Positions 10,770 to 38,573 are shown, counted from the first letter of the stretch. The stretch is 64,000 bases of DNA from a candidate division TA06 bacterium B3_TA06 (GCA_005223075.1 NJBO01000002.1:1836-65835), one strand, 5' to 3'. The notes: a model not told the origin generated them from the letters alone. A program made the numbers and translations.

Positions 10770-13700
10770 ATGATACACAAAACCTGTAACTGGAAAACTG
10801 CATGGTTAATAGTGTCCATGTTTCTGCTTACTTTTACTAGCAAGGTCGCGGGTGAAGAGTTCGATAACCGTTTTCTATTAGGGGTCTATAGTGACAAAAC
10901 CTATCACTCGTTAGATGAAACAAGACACGACGAACTACACTTGAATCTTCTTTTTGGGACGACCACAGGAGTTGGTACATACAGTAGTTACTGTAGTGAA
11001 GATCCTAGACCACAAAATGCTGTATTCTTTTATGCGGGTGAATCGGATCGTCTGGAACCGGCAGTAACCACACCAACAACTCTATCTGAATGGAAGAATG
11101 TAACTGTTGATGCTGCTTTGAGTAGATATCCGGGCAGTGGGACATTAATACACAGAATGTCTTGGCACTTGGGTGAGGAGCATCCTGAATTCTACGATCC
11201 CTTATTTTATGATGGCATGAATTTCCTAATCTCTGAGAAAATACCTGCTAATGAACTGGCCACTTTCTGTGCTACCTTTACTGTTCGGCCTGACATCTTT
11301 TTAGGTGTTGAGGGGCTGGACCTGGGTTGGTATTATTTCGAGCCATTCCTCACCATTTACAAAACAACGGACACTTACTATCAAGATTCCCTTCAGAAGT
11401 ATTGTGTAGATGTGTACGACTTGGTTGCAAAAAAAGTAAAGAATTACCGACAATGGGGATTCTGCCCGAATCTGCAATTAGGAGTGATTCTGCAGGGTTT
11501 CTATGATAGCGATGAAAACGGTGACCCCAGTGACCCTGATGGACATCGCCTACCCACTCCTGAAGAAATGAGCTTTGAAGGATGGCTCACTTTATCTCGG
11601 GGAGCTAAAGCCATGCTGTATTATCTTTATCATTACTCGGATGAAGGTACTCCTAGTTCTCAAATAGGTTTGATAAATTCAGATCGTTCACCGAATAGCA
11701 CTTTTGACCCAGCTGCTGATTTCTACGCGCAGATTAAAGCCATAGACGATAATCTAAAGGGCGCTCCCTACAACTACGCCAACGGACTCTACGAAGTTGA
11801 GCTTGCTAAGTACAAATCTATTCGTGGAGACATGTTGACCCCTGAGTTTTTCGTACGCGAAATCATTGTTGATCCGCCACCGGGTAAGACAAAAGATCAC
11901 GTTTACACTGAACTTAGCTTGCACTACTCCCCATATGGGCACAATTTCTTCCTTTTGCTTAATCGTTCCCTCCACCTTAGCGAACCGGTTGAATACGACA
12001 TAACACTGTTGTGGCAAGGGGAAGGAAGTCCCATCGTCATAGATCTTACTTCGGGAGAAACAATTACCCCTGGGGTTCCTGTGCAAGGTGATGAGTTTAT
12101 GATTCACGTGACCCTTGATCCAGGAGAGGCCGGTTTCTACATAATAACCAATAGCAGTGGAGGTGGGACCGAAAGGGAGCTCTACCTTTGTGGCGAATGG
12201 AGAAATCGCGGGGTTGCTCCCTGGGAGCAAATGAATCCGCAAGATCCCTCTGATCACGGGTACGCGCATTGCAGATGGGAGTGGCTTAAAGGCAAACCTT
12301 TAAACCTGACTGGAATGAGCACATGGAAACACCCCTGTGGCGTGGAAGATTGGGAGCCTGGCCCCTACGATTTTATTCGGTCCATCAATCTGAATTGGGG
12401 CTATTTCTACGATAGGATGGACGCGGACTGCATGAACTATGTGAAGGTAGGCGAACATTCCTACGGAGACGATCTCAGTGATATCGAAGATGGCTTGGTC
12501 GGGACTAAATCGAACGAGATCACGATACAAGAACCCGAAGGTCCCGAGCCTGGATGTCCAGAAGTTTACACCTTCGTTGAGCAAGATACTGCAACCTGCA
12601 CTTATTCGTTCATGGAAAACAACACAATATTGCCTTTTTCCGAAACGGCTGTGACTCTAGAAGAGATTCGTTTAGACCTCTTGAAGATTGATGTGCTTAA
12701 TATCCATACAGGACATTACTACCTCAACATCCGAGAAAACGACGACGAAGAAACCTATCTTTATGGTGCGACACTGTGGGTGGTGGACCATCCCGAGGGT
12801 ACGATAGTCGCTACCTCGTCAGATAGCAACATCTACGTCTACTCTGACGTAGCCAAGCCGCTCACGTGCGTGGATCAGAGTAGTATCGATCGCTATGAGG
12901 AGGTCGTCTATCGAGACGATCAGGCTTTCATCGGATCGGACAACTCTTATCTCACGGTTAGCTTCCCCAATACTAGCTGGATCAATAAAGGAATACTTAT
13001 ACTAACAGGTCTGCCTGACGGGATTGCGGAAATCGATTGGTCCAAGAACTACTACTGCCTGGTCCAAAAATCAAATGGTCAGGGCGGCTGGATTCCTTCA
13101 GGTGAGGCGTTTGCCCGCAAGAACCCGTCACTGTGGTTGGTAGATGTATCTGACGCTTCCGATACCACCTTCCGCATCGATTGCTTTGGTGATTCCTGCT
13201 GTATCAACTATGTAGCCCTGGTTAAACTGGAAGACAATGGCTGGACGCAAACCGAAGCCCCGATTGATTCCGCAATACTTTGGATTGTTGATCCGCCCGG
13301 TACAGCTCCTGTTGGAAGTAATGTTGAGGATTTAATTTCTGATCCCCAAACTGCTGGGATTATTTCACCATGCGGACAGTTGGCACTTTCCTTTACCGAG
13401 GTTCCGCCTGACACTACCTGTCAGCGCGATTTCGTCCTCCAAACATCCGGCTATTACATCCCAGGCATCGGTGGTGGAGATGGCGGCGAACAGAGTACCA
13501 CACCATCTTTGTGTTTCGATCTGGAGGTCCAGACGCTTCACGGTTTAAGGAAGGTCATGCTGATAAACTACGAGGTTCCGGTAGCCACCGACGTAAAGAT
13601 TGCTATCGTGGACGTTGCGGGGCGCGTGGTAGCAGAGCCTTTGAAAGAAGAGGTTACACCTGGCAGGCATCAACTGGAGTGGAACTGGTGCGACGACGCT

Positions 13701-13787
13701 GGGCGAAAGGTTGCTTCAGGGGTATACTTCGTCAAGATGGTTGCAGGTGAGTTCACGGAGGTGAACAAGGTTGTTTTGACAAAGTAA
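10770..13787 (+). CDS. large (1005 aa) secreted hypothetical protein with T9SS CTD
   Basis: Signal peptide. No motif I recognise in the body. The C-terminus ...KIAIVDVAGRVVAEP...GRHQLEWNW.DDAGRKVASGVYFVKMVAG...KVVLTK is CTD-like. AAGGAGG ribosome-binding site. Confidence 0.75.
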   Translation: MIHKTCNWKTAWLIVSMFLLTFTSKVAGEEFDNRFLLGVYSDKTYHSLDETRHDELHLNLLFGTTTGVGTYSSYCSEDPRPQNAVFFYAGESDRLEPAVTTPTTLSEWKNVTVDAALSRYPGSGTLIHRMSWHLGEEHPEFYDPLFYDGMNFLISEKIPANELATFCATFTVRPDIFLGVEGLDLGWYYFEPFLTIYKTTDTYYQDSLQKYCVDVYDLVAKKVKNYRQWGFCPNLQLGVILQGFYDSDENGDPSDPDGHRLPTPEEMSFEGWLTLSRGAKAMLYYLYHYSDEGTPSSQIGLINSDRSPNSTFDPAADFYAQIKAIDDNLKGAPYNYANGLYEVELAKYKSIRGDMLTPEFFVREIIVDPPPGKTKDHVYTELSLHYSPYGHNFFLLLNRSLHLSEPVEYDITLLWQGEGSPIVIDLTSGETITPGVPVQGDEFMIHVTLDPGEAGFYIITNSSGGGTERELYLCGEWRNRGVAPWEQMNPQDPSDHGYAHCRWEWLKGKPLNLTGMSTWKHPCGVEDWEPGPYDFIRSINLNWGYFYDRMDADCMNYVKVGEHSYGDDLSDIEDGLVGTKSNEITIQEPEGPEPGCPEVYTFVEQDTATCTYSFMENNTILPFSETAVTLEEIRLDLLKIDVLNIHTGHYYLNIRENDDEETYLYGATLWVVDHPEGTIVATSSDSNIYVYSDVAKPLTCVDQSSIDRYEEVVYRDDQAFIGSDNSYLTVSFPNTSWINKGILILTGLPDGIAEIDWSKNYYCLVQKSNGQGGWIPSGEAFARKNPSLWLVDVSDASDTTFRIDCFGDSCCINYVALVKLEDNGWTQTEAPIDSAILWIVDPPGTAPVGSNVEDLISDPQTAGIISPCGQLALSFTEVPPDTTCQRDFVLQTSGYYIPGIGGGDGGEQSTTPSLCFDLEVQTLHGLRKVMLINYEVPVATDVKIAIVDVAGRVVAEPLKEEVTPGRHQLEWNWCDDAGRKVASGVYFVKMVAGEFTEVNKVVLTK

Positions 13788-15658: not shown

Positions 15659-16354
15659 ATGCAGAGATCGAGAGTTATCTTTGCCGTACTTATGCTGCTG
15701 GCGTTGCCGGGATTAGGAGTAAGTACAGCAGCCGCCGACAGCCTTGACATAACCCCTTACGAGATAATCTCGCCGGAGAGAGTCCAGCAAGATCCTTTCA
15801 GGCCTCGGGCGTGGTTCGCTGAACGCGGAGGCGTAGAAGTCCAGGAGCCGTCTTTGATTTGCCTTATTGTAGATCTGAGCTCTCAAGACTCGGTATACAT
15901 AGACTCCATCCCTCTGTGGAGAGTGAAACCTTATGACACCATAAAAGCAACGTTTGACGAGACTGATCCCGCGCCCAACATCTACGAGATCACCTTCTGG
16001 GCGGAGAATGATTGGCCCACAAATATCAGCTACCCGCCGCTTGTGGACACCTTCTACTACAAAGTAGGTATAACGGAAACCCCTGTCCCCGGCGAGTTCA
16101 ATCTGGACCCAGTCTCCCCCGATCCGACTACACGCTCTGTTACTGTGAGTTTCTCTCTAGGGCACCCTACCGAGATCACCCTTTCCGTCTATGACTTAAC
16201 CGGTAAGATTGTAACCACGCTTGCGTCCGGAACATGGAACCAAGGCAGACACTCTGTGCGTTGGTATCCTTCGAACGCGCCGCCTGGCGTTTACTTTCTG
16301 CGACTTAGGACACCTGGGTTCTCAGCATCCCGCAAGGTGGTACTGCTGAACTAG
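15659..16354 (+). CDS. small secreted protein with T9SS CTD
   Basis: Signal peptide MQRSRVIFAVLMLLALPGLGVSTAAA. The CTD is ...ITLSVYDLTGKIVTTLASG.W..GRHSVRW.....PGVYFLRL.....RKVVLLN. AAGGAGGG ribosome-binding site. Confidence 0.75.
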   Translation: MQRSRVIFAVLMLLALPGLGVSTAAADSLDITPYEIISPERVQQDPFRPRAWFAERGGVEVQEPSLICLIVDLSSQDSVYIDSIPLWRVKPYDTIKATFDETDPAPNIYEITFWAENDWPTNISYPPLVDTFYYKVGITETPVPGEFNLDPVSPDPTTRSVTVSFSLGHPTEITLSVYDLTGKIVTTLASGTWNQGRHSVRWYPSNAPPGVYFLRLRTPGFSASRKVVLLN

Positions 16355-16461: not shown

Positions 16462-18048
16462 ATGTTGCAGATAAATCTCTGGGCAAGGAGGACGCTTGCC
16501 GCTACGGTTTCCCTTTTTGTAATCTTGGCAGGCTGGCTTCCGGCTGCAACGGTTACCCCCCAGGAGGCTACAAAAGCGGCAATGACCCACATCCAATCCA
16601 TGACCAACGTATGGAGCCAACTCCCATACCTTGAGAATCAAACCATCACCGTAGACAAACTCAAAGAGCTGTGTGAAACTGAATCAAACCAGCTTCTGGG
16701 TTACGTCGCCGAGCTAACACCAAGAGGATTCGTGGTACTTTCTGGAAATACCCAGCTCGCCCCGATAATTGCCTATTCGTATCGCTGCAACTTCCCATGG
16801 GAAGGGAATGCGGATAATATCCTGCGTTGTATGCTAAAAACCGACCTCGCTTTAAGAGAAAAAGCCGTCTCTATAACGGACGCAAACATCTTAAGTGCGA
16901 ACAACTCTTCATGGGAGAACTACCTTGCGGGCGAAGTATTGCTTGAGCTAACCGGGCAGTGGCCCTCTCCAGGTTCCACCCACACGGGTGGATGGGTTGA
17001 AACCACCTGGCGTCAAACTTACCCTTACAATGCCTACTGCCCCAAAGATCCGGGAACAGGCAAGCGATGCGTGGTGGGGTGCGTTGCCACGGCGATGTCC
17101 CAGATCGTAGACTATCATTCCGATAGAAGAAACTACATGAGCGACATTCAACTCTACCGCTATGACAGATATGTCTCAATGATGACAAGTCCATATATAC
17201 GCATTGACCAGGATTCCTCTACATACGACTTCCCCTCGTTCAACGCCCTGAATGGATACCTGGAAGATTTGAGGAATATTTACCTTGCAGATTCCACCCC
17301 GGGTTATTACGATGTTGCCGCGCTTGCCTTCACCTGCGGCATCTTTGTCAAGATGCACTACTCAAGCAGTGGGTCGGGAACCAACGTAGATCGCGTTTCA
17401 TTCGCCTTGATGTTCAAATTTGGATACCCATCGGCGATGAATGTGGACAAAAACACAGCGTGGTTCTACGACACCTTAAGCCAGAACATGAAAGATGCCC
17501 TGCCTGCAGAGCTTGGTATACACTATCCGGACGGTTCATACGGCCATGCGATCGTCTGCGACGGACTGCGTGAGATTGAAGGCGAGGACGACCAGTACCA
17601 TCTGAATTTTGGATGGGGACCCGACAGCCCTGGTCCGATCACAACCGCATGGTACGTCCTACCTCAAGGGATGCCTCTCGGATACAGGGTGATATCAGGC
17701 GGAGTACTATCCATCAGACCCCCTGAAGGCTCCTACGTAGCGGAGCGCGCAGAACCACATCCTTGCCGGTTCTTTATTGAACAACTCTCCCCTACCCTGC
17801 AGATCGCTCCGGCTGCACTCACCTTATCTTACGGACTCCCCTGCCCTGCAAGGGTGCGTTTGAAGATATACGACATCAACGGCCGGATGATCAAGACCCT
17901 CCTGGACGAAGATATGCCTGCCGGTTACCATCAAACAGAATGGGACACGCGAGACAGAGAGGGCCGCGAGGTCGCGTCCGGGATCTATTTCTGCGTGCTC
18001 GAAACAAAGGAAGGAATTTACAAGACAAAAGCCGTCGTAATACGATAA
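16462..18048 (+). CDS. C10-family (streptopain/SpeB-like) cysteine peptidase with pro-region and T9SS CTD
   Basis: Catalytic Cys context GCVATAMSQIVDYH, as in SpeB/fragipain. The His is in YGHAIVCDGL. Signal peptide. The CTD is ...VRLKIYDINGRMIKTLLDED...EVASGIYFCVLETK...KAVVIR. Confidence 0.85.
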   Translation: MLQINLWARRTLAATVSLFVILAGWLPAATVTPQEATKAAMTHIQSMTNVWSQLPYLENQTITVDKLKELCETESNQLLGYVAELTPRGFVVLSGNTQLAPIIAYSYRCNFPWEGNADNILRCMLKTDLALREKAVSITDANILSANNSSWENYLAGEVLLELTGQWPSPGSTHTGGWVETTWRQTYPYNAYCPKDPGTGKRCVVGCVATAMSQIVDYHSDRRNYMSDIQLYRYDRYVSMMTSPYIRIDQDSSTYDFPSFNALNGYLEDLRNIYLADSTPGYYDVAALAFTCGIFVKMHYSSSGSGTNVDRVSFALMFKFGYPSAMNVDKNTAWFYDTLSQNMKDALPAELGIHYPDGSYGHAIVCDGLREIEGEDDQYHLNFGWGPDSPGPITTAWYVLPQGMPLGYRVISGGVLSIRPPEGSYVAERAEPHPCRFFIEQLSPTLQIAPAALTLSYGLPCPARVRLKIYDINGRMIKTLLDEDMPAGYHQTEWDTRDREGREVASGIYFCVLETKEGIYKTKAVVIR

Positions 18049-25559: not shown

Positions 25560-27206
25560 ATGCATATTCTTTGTTTGCTAAGTGTATTCCTGCTTGGGGG
25601 AGTCGAACTTGACACCGAACCGGCGTGGAAATCCAACGACAACGACTACTCCACCGGCGGGATACTGGCCGATATTGACTCAGACGGTGATCTTGATCTG
25701 GTAACCGGCAACGGCAACGACATGGCCCGAAATCCAAATAAAGTTTATTACAATGAAGACAACATCCTTGAAGAAACGGCATCATGGATCTCAGCCGATT
25801 GGAGCTACAATGGACATATATCGCTTGGAGATATGGATGCCGATGGGGATCTTGACTTGGCGGTGGCAGGCTTTGCCTATTACATAAGTTGGCAATCCGA
25901 TCCTTCGCGTGTTTATTTGAACGAAGAAGGTACATTTACTTCGAACCCTGTCTGGTTAGGCGGCAACACTTTGCAGGCGTTTTCCTGCGACTGGGGCGAT
26001 GCGGACGCAGACGGCGACCTTGACCTTGCAGTGGCTGCAGGTAACAGTTATATCCCGAAGAAACAAAAGATAGTGATCTTCAAGAATACGGACGGCGTGC
26101 TCTCGGCTGAACCGATGTGGGAATCAGCGGATTCTGACTACAACATGGACGTATGCTGGGTTGACGTGGACGCAGACGGCGATCTTGACCTGGCTGTGGG
26201 AGGATATGAAACGAACCGGATATACTTCACCGAAGAGGGCACCCTTAACACAGAGGCTGAGTGGGTATCGGCTGATGCCCATCACACCATCCAGATCGCT
26301 TTTGGTGATTTCGACGCAGATGGTGACATGGATATGGCTACCGCAGACAACAACCAGATGATGGACGACGAAAGCCGGGTACGCATCTACCTTAACCATA
26401 ACGGAACGCTGGATACACTGCCATTTTGGGAGTCGAAGCTGTGGCAATATCAATCCTGCGTGGCCTGGGGAGATGTTGATGCAGACGGCGATCTTGATCT
26501 GGCCGCAGGCGGCTGGTGGGAACCGGTAACGGTATACGAAAACAACGATAACTCATTCGATTCTCTGCCGAGCTGGTCGTGGAGCCCTTTCCCGAATGAG
26601 AATCTCGTCTGTGAGCAGGTAATCTGGGGCGAGGTCGACAACGACAACTGGAAGGAGACCACCGAGAACTTCGGGACTATATCTGCAGGTCATGCAATCT
26701 ACCCCTCCCACTTCCCGGCGTTGGATATCGTTGAGGTTAAGATCAATGGATCGGCTGCATCTCCAGGTGGGTTTTGCTGGAATCCGGCCGACGGTTGGAT
26801 TCAGATAAACCAAGAGGGTTGGGTAGAGGTAACCTACCGCTATTCTAAGTATCCTGATCTTCTGGTAACCAACTGGAATCCCCCTACAGGAAACTTCCTC
26901 TTCCTCAACACAGCCGAGGATACAAATGCAGTTGCCGAACTGCCTCCTCCTGAACTTCCTGTCCAGCTTGAAAAGACAATACTGATCCGAGGAGAACCCA
27001 TCAGGCTTATGGCTTCCACTCCTCAAAGGATAGAAGAAATCTCCCTCTACGACGTGACAGGCAGATGGCTTTCCAGCTTTGCTCCAGGGGATTGTCGTGA
27101 GTTAATTGCCCTTCCCTTCGAGACCTCAAGACTTCCTCGCGGGGTGTATTTCCTCCACGTCCTAATCAGGCAGAAACCAATCACCCTGCGCTTCCAGATT
27201 GTGTGA
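25560..27206 (+). CDS. FG-GAP/VCBS-repeat (integrin-alpha-like) secreted protein with T9SS CTD
   Basis: About 8 repeats of D.D.DGDLDL(A/V)(V/A)G. GGAGG ribosome-binding site. The CTD is ...ISLYDVTGRWLSSF...LPRGVYFLHVLI...LRFQIV. Confidence 0.85.
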   Translation: MHILCLLSVFLLGGVELDTEPAWKSNDNDYSTGGILADIDSDGDLDLVTGNGNDMARNPNKVYYNEDNILEETASWISADWSYNGHISLGDMDADGDLDLAVAGFAYYISWQSDPSRVYLNEEGTFTSNPVWLGGNTLQAFSCDWGDADADGDLDLAVAAGNSYIPKKQKIVIFKNTDGVLSAEPMWESADSDYNMDVCWVDVDADGDLDLAVGGYETNRIYFTEEGTLNTEAEWVSADAHHTIQIAFGDFDADGDMDMATADNNQMMDDESRVRIYLNHNGTLDTLPFWESKLWQYQSCVAWGDVDADGDLDLAAGGWWEPVTVYENNDNSFDSLPSWSWSPFPNENLVCEQVIWGEVDNDNWKETTENFGTISAGHAIYPSHFPALDIVEVKINGSAASPGGFCWNPADGWIQINQEGWVEVTYRYSKYPDLLVTNWNPPTGNFLFLNTAEDTNAVAELPPPELPVQLEKTILIRGEPIRLMASTPQRIEEISLYDVTGRWLSSFAPGDCRELIALPFETSRLPRGVYFLHVLIRQKPITLRFQIV

Positions 27207-27268: not shown

Positions 27269-30200
27269 CTAAGGCTGTAACAAAGCGGCCTTGGTTATCC
27301 GCTGGGCCGTAGAAAATTCCTCTGATTCCTCGTCCGTTCGCCGCTCACGCCACCCCAGTGTGTAGATATAAACACCAGGCGCTGGACGGTGACCACTTTC
27401 CGTCAAACCGTCCCAGTGAGCCTCAAAGATGCCGCCGAACTCATAGAAAACCTCGTCTATCAGTGTACGGATGTGCTCGCCGGCTCGGTTGTAGATGCGA
27501 AGCGTCACCAGTCCCGCACGAGGGATGCTGAACGCAAACGTCGTTGAGCCGCTGAACGGGTTCGGGTAGTTGTGGATATCCAATACAGGCTCGAAGCGCG
27601 TCATGATAAGAACGCTGTCGTTCACCAGAGTAGGATCGTCGGTGTAGTAAGTCCGGATCCACACTATCCTGTGTTCGGTTACCGTGGTGTCGAACGCACC
27701 TGCTATACTGCCAAGCTCCTCGTGAGGCCTCACAACCAGACGCGCCACTACCATCTTGGCAGAATCCACAGATCCCAGATCAGGAACGCCGTCATTATCC
27801 TCGTCCAGGAGAGGGGTTCCGTCCTCAAAGCTCAGGGTATGGCTCCAACCCAGATCAGGTGCCGCGTAGCTGCCGATGTCGATAATGTCATACGTGCTGC
27901 CGAGATTGGTTACCCGAAGCAGGTATACCGCCTCCTCGCCAGGACCGATTATCGTGCCCGTGTCCGGCTCGATATCCAGCGCCACTATGTTTCGCGTGCG
28001 TGTTACCACTATCGCGCTGTCGTATACCGTATCGCTGATCGAGGAGCGAGCGTAGACTATGGTTGAATCGAAAAGACCCGGAAGCGCCCAGTAGGGCGGC
28101 GTCACGTCAAGATACAGCATATCAAATCCAGGAACACCCCCGACAAGACCGGCCAAGGTGTCCAGATCAGGGATGTCGTCACCATCGGTGTCCGCAAGAT
28201 CGTTGATCCCGTCCTTGTCAACAAGCCGGTGAACCCAATCCGATTGACCAGGTTCAAAGGTAATGTCCGGAACGTCAGGACCGTTGCCGTAATTGGAAAC
28301 CTTTAAAGGATAGCGAATCGTCTGACCTGAAGGAACCGAATCCAACGTGTCGGGGATGATAAGTAGATCTGGAACAGCGTTAACCGTCACGATCAGAACC
28401 GCGGTGTCGGCAACCAGCTCCACAGGGTAAAGACGCGAGGGGTAGTTCACTGAGGCCCCAGCGAGGTGGATAACAGCGCTGTCACCAGCCATAGCTGTAT
28501 CAGGAACATCAACACGAACCTGGAAGGGAGCCGGTATCTCCTCAGGAAGAACATTCGGGACGTCAGGGTTGCCGTCACCATCACTATCACTAAGACCGAC
28601 CAACTCAACCGGCCACGTAACAGGATCCTTGTTAGAGCTCCAGGTAAGATTGACCGTATCCTCGCGGTAAAGGCTCGTGTTTAGCGCATACACCGAGAAT
28701 ACCGCCGACTCATCAGGATAGGCGGACTCACGCACCGTATCCGGACCTACCTCAATACTCACCTCGAGGATAGTAGTCACAAGAAACGCTGTATCCAGTC
28801 TGGTAGTATCCCGCATGGATACGACGCTGAAGAAACAGGTATCCATAGCTCCGAAAGGCACGGTATCCGAGGGGGTCACGTCGGCTAGCACAAGAACGTT
28901 CCCGCCCTTAGGCAAGGTGTCGGTATCGGGGTTGCCGTCGCCGTCAACGTCAGGCAGGGTGCGGCCCAGCTCGTCGGAAAGGGAGGTGCTGAAGTTTAAA
29001 GAATCGCTGTTCTCTGTGAAGATGTTGATAACGTCCCATATGTTGCCGTTGTTCTCGACGTAGACCTCGTAGGCGCCGTCATCTGTTTGGCTGGTGGAAA
29101 CCAGACATTCGGTATCCTTAAACTGATCCGGGTAGGCGGCAACAGCCGGGTGTATCGCAAACCAGAGAGGCAAGAAGTCTGACCCTTGACGATCAAGGCA
29201 GCTTCCCATAGTCGCCACCCCTTCAGAAGTAGTCACATGGTAGATTGCAACTGCATCGGCATCGTCCAGCGGACAGGAGTAACGGTAGAACTCGCCCCTG
29301 TCAAGGGTTCCCTCGTAGATGGTCGTCTCCTCGTTCCCTCCAGACTTTGGGGTTCTTGTTACCTTTACATCGGTACTGTCGGAGAATGCAATAACGTGAA
29401 GCCGGGAGTAAATAAGCCCAATATCAGACCATGAAACGGAGGCCTGAAGCGGAATATAGAACTCCTTTCCAAGCCCTAAACCGTCGCGGTCAATCCCTCG
29501 AACCATGTAAAAAGCAACGTGGTGTATTCCGAAGCTTGTCCATTCGGTCTGTGAAACAGAGATATCCTTGTCCGCGTGGATGTAAAGCGGCCTGCCCCCC
29601 GTAGGTAATGGAACTGCAAATCCCTTAATCTTGCCTCTCTTCTCACAGAATATCCTTCGAATTGTATCGGCAGGATTATTAAGATCAGTAACCGTTACCC
29701 ATGTTTCGTCTTCCCAGGGAACGAATTGAATATCCTGGGGGGCAGTTCCCCACATATGTTGGTAGGTCATGAAATCCCGGCCAGTGAAAGTTCCGTTGAA
29801 CGCAGGTACGTACATCCCGTTAACGCCGCAGGAGGTCATAGTTGATACAGGACGTGTGGCCTCTACTGAGTAAACTATGGGAGGAACATCTCCCCCCTCA
29901 CGCAAGTAGTACTCGGCACTGTCAAGATCACCCTCCCAGATAACCGTTTGGTTTTCCATATTCCGGACAACCACATGGGTATTATTGTGATAGGCAAAAA
30001 CAGCCAGGATCGCTTCATTAGCTGGGATCCCAGTCGACTTCGGACCTACGGACAACAACTTCGTACTGAGCGGACGACTATTCTGATCCACCGCATACCA
30101 GGTGCCTAACCCCCTCACGAAGGGATCGCCGCTGAGAACCGAGAACTCTTTGCTACCCAGAACCTCATATACTCCCCACGGTATGTCCTTGACAAGGACA

Positions 30201-30535
30201 TATTCTTCGTTCATGAGAACGCCGGACCAAACTGAGTCGCCAGCGTCATTAAGAATCCTACAGTAGTTACTGTCCCCGTAGGAGAATATAACAATATCGC
30301 CGTAGGTGTAGGCAAAGGTAGCAAAGGTATCTTCCTCCTGGGGAATCATCGGAAGATCAAGTTTCCCTACGTAATGGGTTTGCTCCACAGTTCCCTCAAA
30401 TAAAGGTGCTGGTCGGGTAGTATCCCTTTCCACATAGTCTTGCACCAATACATCGCTCGGCTCAACCGCCTGAGCCAGCCCGATTTGCACCCCCCCTAAG
30501 AGCAATATGCTCACTATTACAACAACACGCCGCAT
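27269..30535 (-). CDS. large (1088 aa) secreted multi-domain protein with canonical T9SS CTD (NYPNPF...)
   Basis: Signal peptide. The N-terminal ~500 aa are ~90% identical to 32114..34033, and an internal ~240 aa segment is paralogous to 31359..32087. The C-terminus has the NYPNPFSGSTTFAFSIP...LRIYNRAGEHIRTL...GVYIYTL motif. AGGAGG ribosome-binding site. Confidence 0.85.
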   Translation of the reverse strand: MRRVVVIVSILLLGGVQIGLAQAVEPSDVLVQDYVERDTTRPAPLFEGTVEQTHYVGKLDLPMIPQEEDTFATFAYTYGDIVIFSYGDSNYCRILNDAGDSVWSGVLMNEEYVLVKDIPWGVYEVLGSKEFSVLSGDPFVRGLGTWYAVDQNSRPLSTKLLSVGPKSTGIPANEAILAVFAYHNNTHVVVRNMENQTVIWEGDLDSAEYYLREGGDVPPIVYSVEATRPVSTMTSCGVNGMYVPAFNGTFTGRDFMTYQHMWGTAPQDIQFVPWEDETWVTVTDLNNPADTIRRIFCEKRGKIKGFAVPLPTGGRPLYIHADKDISVSQTEWTSFGIHHVAFYMVRGIDRDGLGLGKEFYIPLQASVSWSDIGLIYSRLHVIAFSDSTDVKVTRTPKSGGNEETTIYEGTLDRGEFYRYSCPLDDADAVAIYHVTTSEGVATMGSCLDRQGSDFLPLWFAIHPAVAAYPDQFKDTECLVSTSQTDDGAYEVYVENNGNIWDVINIFTENSDSLNFSTSLSDELGRTLPDVDGDGNPDTDTLPKGGNVLVLADVTPSDTVPFGAMDTCFFSVVSMRDTTRLDTAFLVTTILEVSIEVGPDTVRESAYPDESAVFSVYALNTSLYREDTVNLTWSSNKDPVTWPVELVGLSDSDGDGNPDVPNVLPEEIPAPFQVRVDVPDTAMAGDSAVIHLAGASVNYPSRLYPVELVADTAVLIVTVNAVPDLLIIPDTLDSVPSGQTIRYPLKVSNYGNGPDVPDITFEPGQSDWVHRLVDKDGINDLADTDGDDIPDLDTLAGLVGGVPGFDMLYLDVTPPYWALPGLFDSTIVYARSSISDTVYDSAIVVTRTRNIVALDIEPDTGTIIGPGEEAVYLLRVTNLGSTYDIIDIGSYAAPDLGWSHTLSFEDGTPLLDEDNDGVPDLGSVDSAKMVVARLVVRPHEELGSIAGAFDTTVTEHRIVWIRTYYTDDPTLVNDSVLIMTRFEPVLDIHNYPNPFSGSTTFAFSIPRAGLVTLRIYNRAGEHIRTLIDEVFYEFGGIFEAHWDGLTESGHRPAPGVYIYTLGWRERRTDEESEEFSTAQRITKAALLQP

Positions 30536-30600
30536 TGCTTCCTCCTAACTAAGGTTTAATTACCATAAGGATACCCCCCCAAAGGGAATTGTCAAGCCCC

Positions 30601-30628
30601 TTGACAGAATTCCAATCAGGCATAGAGT
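30601..30628 (+). promoter_or_regulatory. sigma70-like promoter TTGACA-N16-TAGAGT; the ATG is 6 nt downstream, suggesting a leaderless transcript
   Basis: Consensus -35. The -10 ends 6 nt before the ATG at 30634. Confidence 0.4.
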
Positions 30629-30633
30629 TGGGC

Positions 30634-31362
30634 ATGCCCGCACCCGTAACACCCGTAACACCCGTAACACGCACACCCTTAACTCTCAGGAAGGATCGGG
30701 AAGGAATCCCAAGGATTTGTGTAAAAACCCACACCCTCTCCCCTGCTGACGAGATCGGCGAGGTGGTCGAGCGCTACGCGGCTAGGTATCTAAAGCCGGG
30801 CGACATCGTGGTGCTTGCCGAATCGCCTCTGGCCATCACCCAGGGCAGGGCGATACCAGTAAAGCAGATGCATCCCAGACTTTCGGCAAGGATACTGTGG
30901 CGGTTCGTGCGCAAGGTTCCCTACGGTGTGGGCCTACGCAATCCTTTCTCAATGGAAGCTGCAATTGAAGAGTGTGGTGTGTTACGGGTATGGTTCGCGG
31001 CGATCCTAGGTGGATTCTTGAGGATGCTGGGACGGAGAGGCGATTTCTACAGGATTGCGGGAATCCAGGCGCGGATGATTGATGCGGCAGGAACATCACC
31101 TGTCAAGCCCTACGACGAGTGCGTGCTCAAAGGGCCTAAAGAACCCTACGAGGTGGTCAAGGGATTAAAGAACCGCTTCGGGGTTGAGTTCGCGATAATG
31201 GACATAAACGACATCGGCGGCTCCTGGGCGGTTGCTGCGACTTCGAGGATCAACCGAGCGGCACTTGAGGAGCTGATGCGCGACAACCCCATGGGTCAGG
31301 GCACCCAGCTGACGCCGATTACGATCGTGAGAGCAAGAGGAACCGAGCTGCTCTTAGACTAG
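30634..31362 (+). CDS. CofE-like (F420-0:gamma-glutamyl ligase family) protein whose N-terminus contains (PVT)3 encoded by a CCCGTAACA tandem repeat
   Basis: IPRICVKTHTL.P.DEIGEVVERYAARYLKPGDIVVLAESPLAITQGRAIPV resembles the CofE/F420-ligase N-terminal fold. The family call is from memory. The start is chosen at the first canonical ATG; no other in-frame start exists before the conserved region. Confidence 0.5.
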   Translation: MPAPVTPVTPVTRTPLTLRKDREGIPRICVKTHTLSPADEIGEVVERYAARYLKPGDIVVLAESPLAITQGRAIPVKQMHPRLSARILWRFVRKVPYGVGLRNPFSMEAAIEECGVLRVWFAAILGGFLRMLGRRGDFYRIAGIQARMIDAAGTSPVKPYDECVLKGPKEPYEVVKGLKNRFGVEFAIMDINDIGGSWAVAATSRINRAALEELMRDNPMGQGTQLTPITIVRARGTELLLD

Positions 31363-32087
31363 CGGATAATCACCTTCCTTCGCAGCCTTTGACTTCCTCC
31401 TTCCCGGACAGAAACGAAGTAGACCCCTTGAGACAGATGGGATAGATCGATCTCCGCACGAGGTTCCTCTATGATCTCGGACAGAACCCTGCGGCCAAGA
31501 GCGTCGAAGATGCTAATAGAAACATCATCTCCACTAGTATCACCAAACGATAGGTAAAGTGTGTTACAGGCAAAATTCGAGTGTAGCTCCAAGGCCCCTT
31601 CCTCCTCCAGATGCTCTTCAACAAAAGTCCCACGCACAATCGTAACTACAGTGGCCGAATCGTAAACCGTATCGTTGATCGAGGAGCGAGCGTAGACTAT
31701 GGTTGAATCGAAAGAACCCGGAAGCGCCCAGTAGGGTGGAGTCACGTCAAGATAGAACGTATCAAATCCCGGAACGCCCTCAACAAGACCGGCCAGGGTG
31801 TCCAGATCAGGGATGCCGTCACCATCGGTGTCCGCGAGATCGCTGATGCCGTCCTTCGAAACAAGACGGTGAACCCAATCCGGTTCGCTTGAGGTAAAGG
31901 TGATGTCAGGTACATCGGGATCATCCCCAAAATTGAGAACCTCAAGAGGATAACGAATGGTTTGCCCCGCAGGAACCGAATCCAACGTGTCAGGAACGAT
32001 AAGAAGCCCAGCAACAGGTAATGGCAACGCGTATATTCCGGAAGCCATTACTAATAAGCACACCCCCATCAACACAAAGCGCTTCAT
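31359..32087 (-). CDS. small secreted protein with T9SS CTD, paralogous to an internal domain of 27269..30535
   Basis: Signal peptide and AAGGAGG ribosome-binding site. LLIVPDTLDSVPAGQTIRYPLEVLNFGDDPDVPDITF...TIVYARSSINDTVYDSATVVT matches residues ~690-870 of the 1088-aa protein. It has its own CTD (...ISIFDALGRRVLSE...GVYFVSVREG...RKVIIR). Confidence 0.8.
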   Translation of the reverse strand: MKRFVLMGVCLLVMASGIYALPLPVAGLLIVPDTLDSVPAGQTIRYPLEVLNFGDDPDVPDITFTSSEPDWVHRLVSKDGISDLADTDGDGIPDLDTLAGLVEGVPGFDTFYLDVTPPYWALPGSFDSTIVYARSSINDTVYDSATVVTIVRGTFVEEHLEEEGALELHSNFACNTLYLSFGDTSGDDVSISIFDALGRRVLSEIIEEPRAEIDLSHLSQGVYFVSVREGGSQRLRRKVIIR

Positions 32088-32113
32088 CGCTCCTCCTTTA
32101 TACTCAGAGTTCT

Positions 32114-34033
32114 TTACTTACAAACGACCACCTTACGGGTGATGCGCCCGCTCTGCCCTCTCTTAGCTGAGATAAAGTAAACACCCCGGGGAAAGCCTGA
32201 CACATCTATACTTGCCTGCGATTCCTGGATAGTCCTGGATAAAACCCTGCGGCCTGTTACATCGAATATATCAAGCTGGAGTTCTTCTCTAGCAGGATTC
32301 AAAACGTATACCACATCCTGCCCAAAGGCGAACCTAAGCTCGAAATGAGCCCCCACAAAAGGTTTCTCGCTCACGGAGCCGGGAATAATCCTGGTTATAA
32401 GAAATGCCGTATCACACTTGGTCGTATCACGGGAAGAGACCACTCTGAAGTAACAGGTATCAACAGTCCCAACCGGCACAGTATCCGAAGGGATGACGTC
32501 AACAAGCACAAGGGCGCTTCCGCGTCTAGGCAAGGTATCGGTGTCAGGATTGCCGTCGCCGTCAACGTCAGGCAGTGTGCGGCCCAGCTCGTCGGAAAGT
32601 TCGGTTACAAAATCAGGATCCAGGCTGTTCTCTGTGAAGATGTTGATAATGTCCCATACGTTGCCGTTGTTCTCGACACAGACTTCGTAGCAACCCTGGT
32701 CGGTCTCAGAAACAGGAACCCCGGGGTAAGTCTCTCTAAACTGATCAGGATAGGCGGCAACAGCCGGATGGATCCCAAACCAGAGAGGCAAGAAGTCGGA
32801 GCCCTGGCGATCAAGGCAGCTTCCCATAGTCGCCACCCCTTCAGAAGTAGTCACATGGTAGATTGCAACTGCATCCTCATCGTCCATCGGACAGGTATAA
32901 CGATAGAATTCACCTCTGTCAAGGGTCCCTTCATAGATACCTGTTTCGTCCCCACCGTCTCTTGGAATCCTGGTCACTTTTATATCGGTGTTGTCAGAAA
33001 AAGCTATAACGTGAAGACGAGAATAAACGGGCCCAATAGCAGCCCATGAAACGGAGGCCTGAAGAGGGATATAGAACTCCTTTCCAAGTCCCAAACCATC
33101 GCGGTCAATCCCTCGAACCATGTAAAAAGAAACGTAGTCTGTGCCGAAGCTTATCCATTCGGTTTGGGAAACAGATATGTCCTTGTCCGCGTGGATGTAA
33201 AGTGGCCTGCCCCCCGTAGGTAATGGAACTGCAAATCCCTTAATTTCCCCTCTTTTCTCACAGAATACGTGCCAGATCGTATCTGTCGGATCACCCAGCC
33301 GGGTAACGGTCACCCGTGTTTCGTCTTCCCAGGGAACGAATTGAATATCCTGGGGGGTAGTTCCCCACATATGTTGGTAGGTCATGAAGTCCCGGCCAGT
33401 GAAAGTTCCGTTGAACGCAGGTACGTACATCCCGTTAACGCCGCAGGCGGTCATAGTTGATACAGGACGTGTGGCCTCTACTGAGTAAACTATGGGAGGA
33501 ACATCTCCCCCCTCACTCAAGTAGTACTCGGCACTGTCAAGATCACCCTCCCAGATAACCACCTGGTTTTCCATATTCCGGACAACCACATGGGTATTAT
33601 CATTATAGGCAAAAACAACCAGGATCGCCTCAAGATCTGGGCTAAAAGTTGACTTCGGACCTACGGACAACAACTTCGTACTGAGCGGGCGACTATTCTG
33701 ATCCACCGCATACCAGCAGCCTAACCCTCTACCAAAAGGGTCACCGCTGAGAACCGAGAATTCTTTGCTGCCCAGAACCTCATATACTCCCCACGGTATG
33801 TCCTTGACAAGGACATATTCTTCGTTCATGAGAACGCCGGACCAAACTGAGTCGCCAGCGTCATTAAGAATCTCACAGTAGTTAATGTCTGAGTAAGAAA
33901 ATATCACGATATCCCCAAAGGTATAGGCGTAGGTGGCAAAGGTATCTTCACTTTGAGCGGTATATCCCCATTGGGATACCTGGGGATTTGAAACCATCCC
34001 CAGGAGACTAAAGATGATAAAAAAGCACATCAT
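32114..34033 (-). CDS. secreted protein with T9SS CTD, N-terminal paralog of 27269..30535
   Basis: About 90% amino-acid identity and near-identical DNA stretches (e.g. 29461-29640 vs 33081-33260). It has its own CTD (...LDIFDVTGRRVLSRT...GVYFISAKRG...RKVVVCK). AAGGAGG ribosome-binding site. Confidence 0.85.
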   Translation of the reverse strand: MMCFFIIFSLLGMVSNPQVSQWGYTAQSEDTFATYAYTFGDIVIFSYSDINYCEILNDAGDSVWSGVLMNEEYVLVKDIPWGVYEVLGSKEFSVLSGDPFGRGLGCWYAVDQNSRPLSTKLLSVGPKSTFSPDLEAILVVFAYNDNTHVVVRNMENQVVIWEGDLDSAEYYLSEGGDVPPIVYSVEATRPVSTMTACGVNGMYVPAFNGTFTGRDFMTYQHMWGTTPQDIQFVPWEDETRVTVTRLGDPTDTIWHVFCEKRGEIKGFAVPLPTGGRPLYIHADKDISVSQTEWISFGTDYVSFYMVRGIDRDGLGLGKEFYIPLQASVSWAAIGPVYSRLHVIAFSDNTDIKVTRIPRDGGDETGIYEGTLDRGEFYRYTCPMDDEDAVAIYHVTTSEGVATMGSCLDRQGSDFLPLWFGIHPAVAAYPDQFRETYPGVPVSETDQGCYEVCVENNGNVWDIINIFTENSLDPDFVTELSDELGRTLPDVDGDGNPDTDTLPRRGSALVLVDVIPSDTVPVGTVDTCYFRVVSSRDTTKCDTAFLITRIIPGSVSEKPFVGAHFELRFAFGQDVVYVLNPAREELQLDIFDVTGRRVLSRTIQESQASIDVSGFPRGVYFISAKRGQSGRITRKVVVCK

Positions 34034-34094: not shown

Positions 34095-34475
34095 CTAGTA
34101 GATTATGACCCTGCGTATGACGCGCTGGCTCTCCACTATCCGGGCGGAGAGGAAGTAAACGCCCGGTTGAAAATGCGAGACGTCAATCAGGGTCCGAGGA
34201 CCGTCAAAAACCTCTTTATAGATACTGCATCCCAGGACGTCGAAAAGCTCCAGGTGAACCTCCCCCCCAAACGAATAGTTGAGCGCCACGAAAAGCACGT
34301 CGTGCGCAGGCTGCGGATAGACCTCCAGGCAATCTGCAAAAGTGGTGTCGCTTCCTTGAACATCTTCGTCAAAGACCTGCTCACTTGCCTCACTAACCCC
34401 AACCCACTCCTCGGAGGTAACCTCCCCTCCATCACCCCCTGAGATGTTAAGCATCGCCAAAAGGATCAAAAATTT
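34095..34475 (-). CDS. minimal secreted protein: signal peptide plus short linker plus T9SS CTD
   Basis: MKFLILLAMLNISGG... then ...LELFDVLGCSIYKEVFDG...GVYFLSARI...RRVIIY. Only ~126 aa. Confidence 0.6.
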   Translation of the reverse strand, partial: KFLILLAMLNISGGDGGEVTSEEWVGVSEASEQVFDEDVQGSDTTFADCLEVYPQPAHDVLFVALNYSFGGEVHLELFDVLGCSIYKEVFDGPRTLIDVSHFQPGVYFLSARIVESQRVIRRVIIY

Positions 34476-34637
34476 CATCTCTACCTCCATACCCTTTTCA
34501 TATACTAAGATAAGCAATAATCGTGCCAAGCCCTCCTGAAAAATAAGTTCAACAGATACTTGACTTATCGAAAAAGAGGATGTTACGATGTAGCACAGAA
34601 TGTCACAGAATTACATAAAAAGATAATTCCTTCCTCG

Positions 34638-36758: not shown

Positions 36759-37036
36759 CTTGTACTCCTAGTCGGATTGACCTTTCCCAGGTGGACACAG
36801 CTCGTTAAATATCCAACCAAGGTCCATTACGTCAAGCTCTCCGCTCAGGTCAAGGTCGGTGCTGTCCAGGGTGCCTCGACATTCGTGGCATTCATAGACG
36901 AGCTTCAGGAACTTGCCCCCCACCAGTCGGGGAACCTCGTTTCGCCTTTCTTTACCATACCAAGTGAATACATCCCGGCCACCTTTAGCACTATTGCACC
37001 TTCGGCAACACAAAACAAGGTTATGTATTTCGTGAG

Positions 37037-38127
37037 TTCAATAATGAAGTGCAACACCTTGGAAAGCGAGAGGGATTTCGTTATTCTGAGGATGTATGCA
37101 CTCAATCTACCGACATCTTGGACTGGAGGAGCGTGAGGTGACAGCGTGCCCCTTGAGCGCTTTATGCGCTCATAGGGTATAGAGAATATGCTTAGAGATG
37201 GGCGATCCATACGCGAGATGGCGCAGGTTTTAGGAAGGAACGCCTCCAGCATCTCGCGGGAGCTACGGCGCAACCGCTCACCAGTCCACGCGAGTTACCT
37301 TGATCATCGCGCCCAGGAGCGTGCGGATAGACGCAGGTCAAACGCAAGCCGCAGGATGCGATTGAAGAGTGATAAGATCAGGGATTACGTGGTGTCCAAG
37401 CTCAACCAAGACTCCTCGCCAGAGCAGATAGCTGGAAGGATCGAGATAGATTGGCCTGGTCTATCTATCAGCCACGAGGCTATCTATCAATACGTCTACC
37501 ATCCTTCCACCCCCAACCGAGGAGAGCTCATCGGTTGTCTGAGGCGTTCTCACAAGAGACGCAAGAGGAAGGGTAGGGCACCAGACAAGCATAGGTCTAA
37601 GATAACGGGTAGGGTGGGCATAGAACAAAGACCATTTGAAGTCGAGACCAGAGCCAGGTTTGGGGACTGGGAGGCAGACACCTTGATCTCACGCCGGAGC
37701 AGGGCGGCTATATTAACCATGGTAGAACGCTCAAGCAGGTTGGTTCAGCTTGAAAAGTTGGATGCTAAGACCTCTACTCTGACATCTCAAGCTATCATCA
37801 GCCGCCTGCTGTGCTTTCCCAGAGACTCCAGGCATACTATCACCTTCGACAATGGCCCGGAGAATGCTGAGCATGAAGGAGTCTCCCAATCCACAGGCAT
37901 AAGCTGCTTCTTCTGCGAACCTTACTCTTCGTGGCAGCGAGGAACCAATGAGCACACCAACGGACTGGTAAGGCAATACTTGCCAAAGAAGACCGACTTC
38001 GCTATAATCAGTAGTGAGGAAATCAAGTTGATAGAGTCAAGGTTAAACAACAGGCCCAGGAAATGCCTGGGCTTTAAAACCCCACTCGAAGTCGCTAACA
38101 TATGTGTTGCACTTCAACGTTGAATGT
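37037..38127 (+). mobile_element. IS30-family insertion sequence (~1.09 kb) with ~22-bp imperfect terminal inverted repeats (GTTCAATAATGAAGTGCAACAC / ATTCAACGTTGAAGTGCAACAC)
   Basis: The terminal inverted repeats flank a single transposase ORF. The element interrupts an HNH endonuclease reading frame. Confidence 0.85.
37188..38123 (+). CDS. IS30-family DDE transposase
   Basis: N-terminal HTH (SIREMAQVLGRNASSISREL). DDE region (GDWEADT...ITFDNGPE...NGLVRQYLPKKTDF) typical of IS30/IS1655-like transposases. Confidence 0.88.
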   Translation: MLRDGRSIREMAQVLGRNASSISRELRRNRSPVHASYLDHRAQERADRRRSNASRRMRLKSDKIRDYVVSKLNQDSSPEQIAGRIEIDWPGLSISHEAIYQYVYHPSTPNRGELIGCLRRSHKRRKRKGRAPDKHRSKITGRVGIEQRPFEVETRARFGDWEADTLISRRSRAAILTMVERSSRLVQLEKLDAKTSTLTSQAIISRLLCFPRDSRHTITFDNGPENAEHEGVSQSTGISCFFCEPYSSWQRGTNEHTNGLVRQYLPKKTDFAIISSEEIKLIESRLNNRPRKCLGFKTPLEVANICVALQR

Positions 38128-38573
38128 AGGTTTCATTAATTTTGCAATCCGGAGGAGCATTAATCTTCTGTGGAATTATATGATCCCAAGTTAAATCCTC
38201 GGTGGCGTCGCAGTAAGAACACCTTTTTTCTTCAAACATCTTCTGATCTTCCCGAACGACATCCGACCACTTCTTCCGCCCCATTTGCAAGTCCTTGAAT
38301 GTTTTCATGATAAACCCGTATTGCCCTTCCATCCCAGCAGATCGAGCGATCAACTTCGCATACTGCCAGAAGATAAGATCCCGGACAGTCTTTACAGCTT
38401 TAGGCGGCATAGATTCCTCCTCGTGACATACCACTATATCCGCAACCGCAAGCTTGTCAACTCTTCTTCTCCCCCCCTCTTCCCTGAAAGGCTTCAAGCA
38501 CCTTGACCAATCCACACAAAGCCCTATAATTCAGAACGTGGGACAAGCTGAATCCCATGTAAGGAGGAGTTAA

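Follow-up and report, generated by a model that had tools for sequence, protein, structure and literature searches.

Old paralogs at a putative surface-protein locus of a candidate division TA06 bacterium have probably become mosaic by gene conversion

The stretch of DNA analysed here, in the following termed the window, comprises 64,000 nucleotides (nt) from the candidate division TA06 bacterium B3_TA06 (GCA_005223075.1, NJBO01000002.1:1836-65835) and originates from a metagenome-assembled genome, in which its contig measures 265.5 kb. Two of its genes, A (CEE36_01645) and B (CEE36_01660), encode proteins that share a long region, termed X, which a first-pass annotation had ascribed to a recent duplication. 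By comparison with related loci taken from other TA06/WOR-3 assemblies, we find that the relationship between A and B changes from one segment of X to the next, and we consider it likely that both are old paralogs residing in a variable surface-protein locus, which have become mosaic by gene conversion. The minus strand of the locus carries, in this order, a small gene, B, a third gene termed C and A, with a CofE-like gene on the plus strand between C and A (Table 1). In A, region X (aa 66-598) comes after an N-terminal part found in A only (aa 1-65), which includes a putative signal peptide, and precedes three β-sandwich modules of about 120-135 aa each with DxDGDG loops (aa ~599-985) and a C-terminal domain (CTD) that resembles FlgD-Ig domains and the tail of PorU. 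In B, it is located between a hydrophobic N-terminus, which is short and conserved (aa 1-26), and a type A CTD of the type IX secretion system (T9SS, aa ~575-639), with X itself covering aa 27-558.

The two copies of X are direct repeats 3.6 kb apart, which share 442 of 533 residues (83%, BLASTP) and are 85.1% identical at the nucleotide level over 1561 nt (blastn), thus less than the ~90% over the N-terminal ~500 aa that had initially been assigned to the pair. Over the whole repeat, the synonymous divergence (dS) amounts to 0.52 and the ratio of nonsynonymous to synonymous divergence (dN/dS) to 0.22 (Nei-Gojobori), and the similarity is strongly mosaic. Exact runs common to both genes measure 58-102 nt, and neither the length of the longest nor a series of 57 successive identical third codon positions is explained by chance (p<1e-4 for each in permutations). 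The near-identical tracts had previously been placed at 29.4-29.7 and 33.0-33.3 kb, where the copies are only 83.7% identical, and the true ones are listed in Table 1.

We aligned the codons of X from nine genes and analysed the alignment by sliding identities and by segment trees with bootstraps. In three segments (aa 360-419, 460-498 and 539-598 in the numbering of A), B of the window clusters with B of the related loci L001, L003 and L008 with a bootstrap support of 100%, and a clade uniting A and B of the window lineage receives 0%. In the same segments, A clusters with A of L001, L002 and L003 (75%), and dS reaches 1.70 between A and B compared to 0.24 between B of the window and B of L003. 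The opposite is found in aa 66-165, 266-359 and 420-459, where A and B of the clade formed by the window, L001 and L002 group together in 100% of the bootstraps with all genes of L003 and L008 outside, and the B clade is recovered in 0%; here dS between A and B is 0.38 and the divergence of the orthologs from L003 is saturated. Other parts of X show an exchange of still younger appearance. Within aa 166-265, A of the window groups with its orthologs of L001 and L002 in 0 of 300 bootstraps, and in aa 206-245 it is identical to B of L001. In a class of recent tracts (aa 94-127 and 186-265), dS between A and B drops to 0.04 as opposed to 0.26 between A of the window and A of L001. Conversely, in aa 499-538, B of the window never groups with B of L001 and carries A-type sequence. 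In the quartet formed by A and B of the window and of L001, 155 informative sites follow orthology and 21 are discordant, the latter clustered in few places. The pairwise nucleotide alignment and the estimation of synonymous divergence, which the first-pass annotation had named as a check, thus returned a dS that is not uniform, ranging from 0.04 to 1.70 by segment class. With dN/dS at 0.1-0.5 in all classes, both copies appear to be under purifying selection. The opposite trees in adjacent segments, each with full bootstrap support, together with the mosaic in dS argue for repeated and patchy gene conversion. Both marks of an interlocus event, phylogenetic incongruence and tracts of near-zero dS amid high divergence beyond chance, are found in the pair.

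In light of the metagenomic source of the sequence, the mosaic could also have been generated by an assembler that jumped from one paralog or co-occurring strain to another where k-mers are shared, or that collapsed repeats. The exact shared runs would provide the opportunity, and the window is closer to the locus L010 in its flanks (93-98%) and closer to L001 in B and in region X of A (~91-92%). We nevertheless consider an artefact improbable, as the older homogenised segments and the A and B clades recur in independent assemblies of different samples (L001, L002, L003-5 and L008). No identical stretch of the two copies exceeds 102 nt, so that they are not collapsed, both open reading frames (ORFs) are intact with a dN/dS below 1, and there is no reciprocal swap pattern. 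Moreover, P0005, which stems from an independent assembly, carries the variant of window A in aa 166-265 and thus speaks against an artefact that is private to the window contig.

The age of the pair is manifested in the organization of the related loci, which share a conserved layout consisting of lipA-lipB, the small CTD gene, B, a variable slot, the CofE-like gene, A and an FG-GAP gene. The arrangement including B is common to the window, L001, L003-5 and L008, as are the short N-terminus of B and the type of its CTD, which indicates that B is an old resident of its own slot. In combination with the cross-lineage B clade and the large dS between A and B in the segments that support it, this suggests that the duplication of A and B would be older than the split of the window lineage from the lineages of L003 and L008. 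Of the proposal of a recent duplication, the paralogy of A and B therefore stands and the recent date does not. In its elaborated form, an A-like gene would recently have been duplicated in tandem, after which the copy would have broken up into B and C and both would have gained a new CTD. This appears very unlikely to us, despite the 98-100% identity of some tracts and despite the order of B and C, which is collinear with X and the second β-sandwich module of A at nearly constant offsets of 3615-3640 nt. It is at odds with the layout that is kept in lineages with a flank identity of ~77%, in which B is orthologous to the B of other lineages in three segments. The intervals between the homologous parts do not fit either: blastn at word size 7 detected no remaining similarity of module 1 of A to the region encoding the B CTD and the C signal peptide (344-369 nt), nor a counterpart of the stretch between the repeats (30335-31659) in either flank, so that a simple tandem duplication unit cannot be reconstructed.

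Gene C bears on the same question. The protein was described as a ~240-aa module of A that reappears as a separate gene, but the shared part encompasses only 128 aa, the remaining ~110 residues being a putative signal peptide and a CTD. In detail, the putative signal peptide (aa 1-24) precedes the A-type module (aa 25-152, positions 31632-32015), which a linker connects to a type A T9SS CTD (aa ~175-242). The module of C derives from module 2 of A, with 80% amino acid identity between aa 721-848 of A and aa 25-152 of C (over 129 aa, BLASTP), 83.3% nucleotide identity between 28020-28377 and 31660-32017 (over 360 nt, blastn) and a dS of 0.63. Its nucleotide identity is 80% to the A gene of the same genome and 79-82% to the A genes of L002 and L004, whose modules are 86-92% identical to the one of window A, and orthologs of C with 80-93% identity are found in at least five other assemblies. 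Being as distant from its own A as from the A of other lineages, C thus appears to be an old and stable gene instead of a fresh fragment, with a module that is older than the split between the window and L004. What would hint at one split of an A-like copy into B and C are the collinear offsets only.

If A had been duplicated independently in each lineage without gene conversion, the similarity of A and B within a clade would reflect young copies, as might be presumed from the tree of the whole region X, where A and B of the window clade group together, and from the readiness of the family to duplicate. We give this explanation little credence, since it would have to place B repeatedly at the same position with the same short N-terminus and CTD type, and cannot yield segments in which the B genes of different lineages form a clade with full support. 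The least probable alternative, uneven selective constraint without recombination, in which slowly evolving stretches merely look young, can point to conserved motifs overlapping with some of the identical tracts (such as GMYVPAFNGTFTGRDFMTYQ), but it fails on the synonymous sites, which show the same mosaic including the long series of identical third positions, on codons where orthologs are more diverged than paralogs, and on the change of tree topology, not of branch lengths alone, between segments. As side observations on the duplication behaviour of the family, a more distant WOR-3 locus (L006:7060-12549) contains two tandem genes with region X in the same orientation (1057 aa and at least 678 aa), and the same genome holds a third one (P0017) on another contig; the X family thus appears to duplicate repeatedly. 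In L008, a gene located downstream of B (L008:11947-12330) in the variable slot at the contig end consists of a leader and the last sub-domain of X (aa ~457-573 of A), and would be another, differently cut member of the family.

Recombination at the locus, which we regard as the source of the A/B mosaic, has also left products in the gene content of sister genomes. Relative to the window, L001 lacks a segment that covers the 3' half of the B CTD, the signal peptide and module of C and the 5' half of the C CTD, as defined by blastn collinearity and a three-way alignment. Its breakpoint coincides with the 12-mer GGCCGCAGGGTT, encoding the motif GRRV, which has exactly two copies in the window, located in the CTDs of B and C only. 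The B CTD of L001 is a chimera that follows the B CTD of the window until this motif and the C CTD thereafter, and the 3' end of the gene overlaps with the CofE-like gene by the same 4 nt as does C in the window. The likeliest cause of the loss of C from L001 is thus a crossover that joined the CTD-coding ends of the two genes. In L010, L011 and L012, nearly all of B is missing from just past its start codon and C directly follows the promoter-like region; the same gene order without B is found in L014. The last ~69 nt of B in L003 are closer to the CTD tail of the small gene than to other B tails, which suggests a further exchange between CTDs. Modular rearrangement among the presumably secreted proteins, which had been proposed as fusion or fission, is therefore seen in sister genomes, whereas the recent split is contradicted by the age of the C module and the presence of C orthologs elsewhere. 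Similarly, the view of ~200-bp identical tracts as live recombination substrates is borne out with respect to recombination, by the conflicting trees, the range in dS and the products in sister genomes, but not with respect to the tracts, the longest of which falls short of this length by about half.

A different kind of variation is found in L010, the closest relative of the window in its flanks (96.5% nucleotide identity in the FG-GAP gene, 97.5% in the Metallophos gene, 94.8% in C and 93-98% in the flanking genes). In its A gene (L010:11549-14788), the head (aa 66-457, window 29165-30340) is 62.7% identical to window A with saturated synonymous sites (proportion of synonymous differences, pS, 0.76), and from aa 458 onward the identity rises to 83-95%. 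This head is about equally distant from all other sampled heads. We considered it as an 'unconverted' A head, an idea that we rejected given its equal distance (~0.6 nucleotide identity) from A and B of L003. The A and B genes of one genome have matching head types. In its N-terminal two-thirds, X hence behaves as a set of deeply diverged alleles that would be exchanged among near-identical backgrounds, and the case of L010 points to a putative allelic replacement of a hypervariable region. The L010 strain with the divergent A head is also one of those without B.

The assignment of the encoded proteins to T9SS cargo is based on their CTDs. Against TIGR04183 and PF18962 (cut-offs 23 and 27 bits), the CTD of B scores 38.9 and 37.6 bits, the one of C 42.9 and 40.7 bits and the one of the small gene 29.5 and 36.3 bits, all above threshold. 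The CTDs of B and C, which had been regarded as different from each other, are both of type A and homologous (43% identity over the last 62 aa), and it is A whose CTD differs. The tail of A, which contains a conserved extra end with the sequence KKALLQP, reaches 17.5 bits against PF13860 (FlgD_ig), below the cut-off of 27, and matches locally to the C-terminal 90 residues of PorU (NF033707, E=4.4e-10), far under the cut-off for the whole protein. A profile of the A family finds FlgD structures in a search of PDB sequences (E=7e-5) and the A orthologs P0003 and P0010 have precomputed PF13860 matches; the likeness to FlgD-Ig thus appears to be real, although class membership at threshold fails for A. 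Judged by eye, the N-terminus of C (MKRFVLMGVCLLVMASGIYA) looks like a classical signal peptide, and the one of B (MMCFFIIFSLLGMVSNPQVSQ) is hydrophobic and kept in B orthologs but lacks a basic n-region. No component of the T9SS machinery (SprA/PorV/PorU/GldKLMN) was found among the window ORFs scanned. Taken together, A, B and C may be secreted and probably surface-attached structural or adhesive proteins. The small gene, which precedes B, or else C, in all related loci, encodes a putative signal peptide, an acidic linker and a CTD that is 92-97% identical even to lineages with a flank identity of ~77%, and looks like a CTD-only 'cargo' under strong constraint. Elsewhere in the window, a 1005-aa protein with an ambiguous Por_Secre_tail/FlgD_ig tail (10770-13787, plus strand), a 231-aa Por_Secre_tail protein (15659-16354, plus strand) and a C10 peptidase (16462-18048, plus strand), which combines a Spi inhibitor prodomain with an FlgD_ig tail at 31 bits, above threshold, indicate that both flavours of CTD are used in the genome.

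Models of A and B obtained with AlphaFold are all-beta (predicted local distance difference test scores, pLDDT, of 74.6 and 80), and both proteins are predicted to be strings of β-sandwich domains, in which nothing points to an enzyme. A Foldseek search of these models against the PDB returned generic multi-Ig/FN3/macroglobulin, RTX-adhesin-extender and S-layer chains only, with template modelling (TM) scores below 0.2, so that no specific fold or function can be assigned to X. Region X likewise had no identifying match in Pfam, NCBIfam or a PDB sequence search, and the PDB profile search gave FlgD Ig domains at the tail of A only; matches to IgGFc_binding (PF17517) at 16.2 and 20.3 bits stay below the cut-off of 25.6 and cover ~70 residues.

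Several observations weigh against our interpretation of A and B as old paralogs homogenised by gene conversion. The trees are neighbour-joining trees of short segments, whose boundaries were chosen after viewing the sliding-window profile. The direction of single conversions is ambiguous, and the pattern in aa 166-265 would alternatively be explained by a foreign patch in A of L001 and L002. Some patterns require exchange between lineages as well, such as aa 499-538 of window B, which are closest to A of L003, and the N-terminus of A in L010, which is closest to the same gene. For the youngest tracts, strain mixing or paralog switching in metagenome assembly may have contributed. Finally, with a CTD of A below the Pfam threshold, no T9SS machinery in the window and a B protein devoid of a positively charged n-region, secretion is a property that we infer.

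On balance, we favour a scenario in which A and B would be members of one family of surface proteins that are secreted, all-beta and built like 'beads on a string', with CTDs of the T9SS type. The duplication would have come first, before the lineages of the window, L003 and L008 separated. Non-reciprocal homologous recombination between the direct repeats, by RecA-type gene conversion or unequal crossover, would then have overwritten patches at different times, leaving very young, intermediate and ancient segments side by side, with three segments that escaped and kept their A or B identity. A crossover at the 12-nt identity between the B and C CTDs would have deleted C from one sister genome, where a hybrid CTD remains, and a deletion between the promoter and ribosome-binding site (RBS) region of B and the RBS of C would have taken out B in others. 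A more far-reaching proposal, which we regard as speculative and rather doubtful, is a dedicated surface-variation system, in which the exposed head of A and B (aa 66-457) would be matched within a genome by conversion and swapped wholesale between near-identical strains (63% compared to 93-98% in the flanks), with the CTD-coding ends and RBS regions serving as portable recombination handles for fusing, splitting, gaining and losing T9SS cargo modules. If true, the CTD would not only signal secretion but also act as a device for evolutionary shuffling.

The surroundings of these genes add the following details. C starts 26 nt past the end of B and shows no promoter-like site of its own in a promoter scan; AAGGAGGG is located directly upstream of the ATG of B. 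In promoter and terminator scans of the locus, signals were not above shuffled expectation. The CofE-like gene is divergent from A and convergent with C (4-nt overlap). Its position between the paralogs on the opposite strand is as initially described, but the CofE label is not secured, as its N-terminal similarity to the F420-0:gamma-glutamyl ligase family PF01996 (24.8 bits at a cut-off of 25) covers profile positions 2-77 of 218 only and no NCBIfam match was found at E<=0.1. The gene adjoins A at the same position and orientation in L001, L003-5, L007, L010-12 and L014, thus even in L007 where B is missing, which indicates that it has long resided next to A and did not enter between the paralogs recently. 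It encodes 218-257 aa and is always divergent from A, and the intergenic region shared with A contains a palindromic TTGACA pair (30590-30606). On the other side of A, the convergent gene of an FG-GAP/VCBS repeat protein (25560-27206, plus strand) with six repeats (direct-repeat family D5, period ~160 nt) adjoins A also in L002, L007 and L010. Further away, an IS30-like transposase (HTH_38 and rve, 37188-38123, plus strand) lies within a segment (37032-38130) that is an insertion relative to L008, in which the flanking sequences abut.

Table 1. Genes, repeat copies and breakpoints at the A/B locus (positions in the window) and organization of related loci.
Feature	Position	Strand	Remarks
Gene A (CEE36_01645)	27269..30535	-	1088 aa; ORF and translation, NCBI protein matched by homolog search
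Gene B (CEE36_01660)	32114..34033	-	639 aa; ORF and translation, homolog search
Gene C	31359..32087	-	242 aa
CofE-like gene	30589..31362	+	between C and A; sub-threshold F420_ligase similarity
Small CTD gene	34095..34490	-	131 aa; putative signal peptide, acidic linker, type A CTD only
Region X, copy in A	28781..30334	-	blastn partner 32399-33949
Region X, copy in B	32399..33949	-	blastn and BLASTP
Putative recent conversion tract, A side	29702..29945	-	244 nt, 98.4% identical to 33317-33560
Putative recent conversion tract, B side	33317..33560	-	partner 29702-29945
Longest exact A/B match, A side	30156..30257	-	102 nt; partner 33771-33872
Longest exact A/B match, B side	33771..33872	-	102 nt; partner 30156-30257
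Module 2 of A (aa 721-848)	27992..28375	-	only part common to C; BLASTP, blastn
Segment missing from L001	31497..32243	-	B CTD 3' half, C signal peptide and module, C CTD 5' half
GGCCGCAGGGTT in C CTD	31485..31496	-	one of two window copies; crossover point in L001
GGCCGCAGGGTT in B CTD	32243..32254	-	second of two window copies
Segment missing from L010/L011/L012	32100..34021	-	nearly all of B, from just past start codon
Related locus L001			flank identity ~90% nt; lipA, lipB, small gene, B (hybrid CTD), CofE-like (opposite strand), A
Related loci L003/4/5			flank identity ~77-79% nt; lipA, lipB, small gene, B, 493-aa beta-helix gene, CofE-like (opposite strand), A
Related locus L008			flank identity ~72% nt; small gene, 537-aa gene, B, gene starting at ~X aa 457 (contig ends)
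Related locus L007			flank identity ~68% nt; small gene, methyltransferase, radical-SAM gene, CofE-like (opposite strand), 203-aa ORF, A, FG-GAP gene; no B

Interlocus gene conversion and concerted evolution are familiar from bacterial paralogs such as tufA/tufB, rRNA operons and pilE/pilS of Neisseria. The pair described here shares with them the non-reciprocal patches, the mosaic in synonymous divergence and the higher similarity of paralogs within a genome compared to orthologs between genomes. It differs in that conversion is partial, with three segments keeping their A or B identity, and there is no evidence at A/B of a programmed donor/acceptor arrangement or a dedicated recombination signal. 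With T9SS cargo carrying type A CTDs (TIGR04183/PF18962), the proteins encoded by B, C and the small gene have in common the N-terminal hydrophobic leader and a β-sandwich CTD of ~70 aa at the extreme C-terminus, from which the sub-threshold FlgD_ig-like tail of A and the window without a T9SS machinery gene depart. The closest described case is the rgpA/kgp/hagA family of Porphyromonas gingivalis, where paralogous T9SS cargo genes share long module-coding repeats and recombination between shared adhesin modules leads to deletions, domain rearrangements and mosaic strain alleles (PMC5266723, PMC9328147). In contrast to these proteins, A and B contain no protease or haemagglutinin domain, are unrelated in sequence and belong to an uncultured TA06 host; the TA06 paralogs are also adjacent to each other, a CTD-coding end has served as crossover site and one paralog carries an FlgD-Ig-like tail. 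Our search found no relevant literature on TA06 with T9SS, FlgD-Ig with T9SS or T9SS with gene conversion. Conversion between paralogs and mosaic surface proteins are already well known, whereas what is new here is the phylum, a protein family unrelated to the described ones, a clean natural series of three states and a crossover inside a CTD-coding sequence.

For the TA06/WOR-3 lineages, the locus provides a candidate for a surface antigen or adhesin that varies between strains. Taken by itself, an identity of 83-85% within a genome would pass for a young duplication, and it is the sister loci that reveal what is probably an old pair held together by conversion, which would alter any dating or inference of 'fission' drawn from a single genome. 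Close relatives have one of three gene contents, either B and C together, or a hybrid of the two, or C alone, and the breakpoints fall on a CTD motif and on an RBS, which illustrates how modular secreted proteins may be rebuilt.

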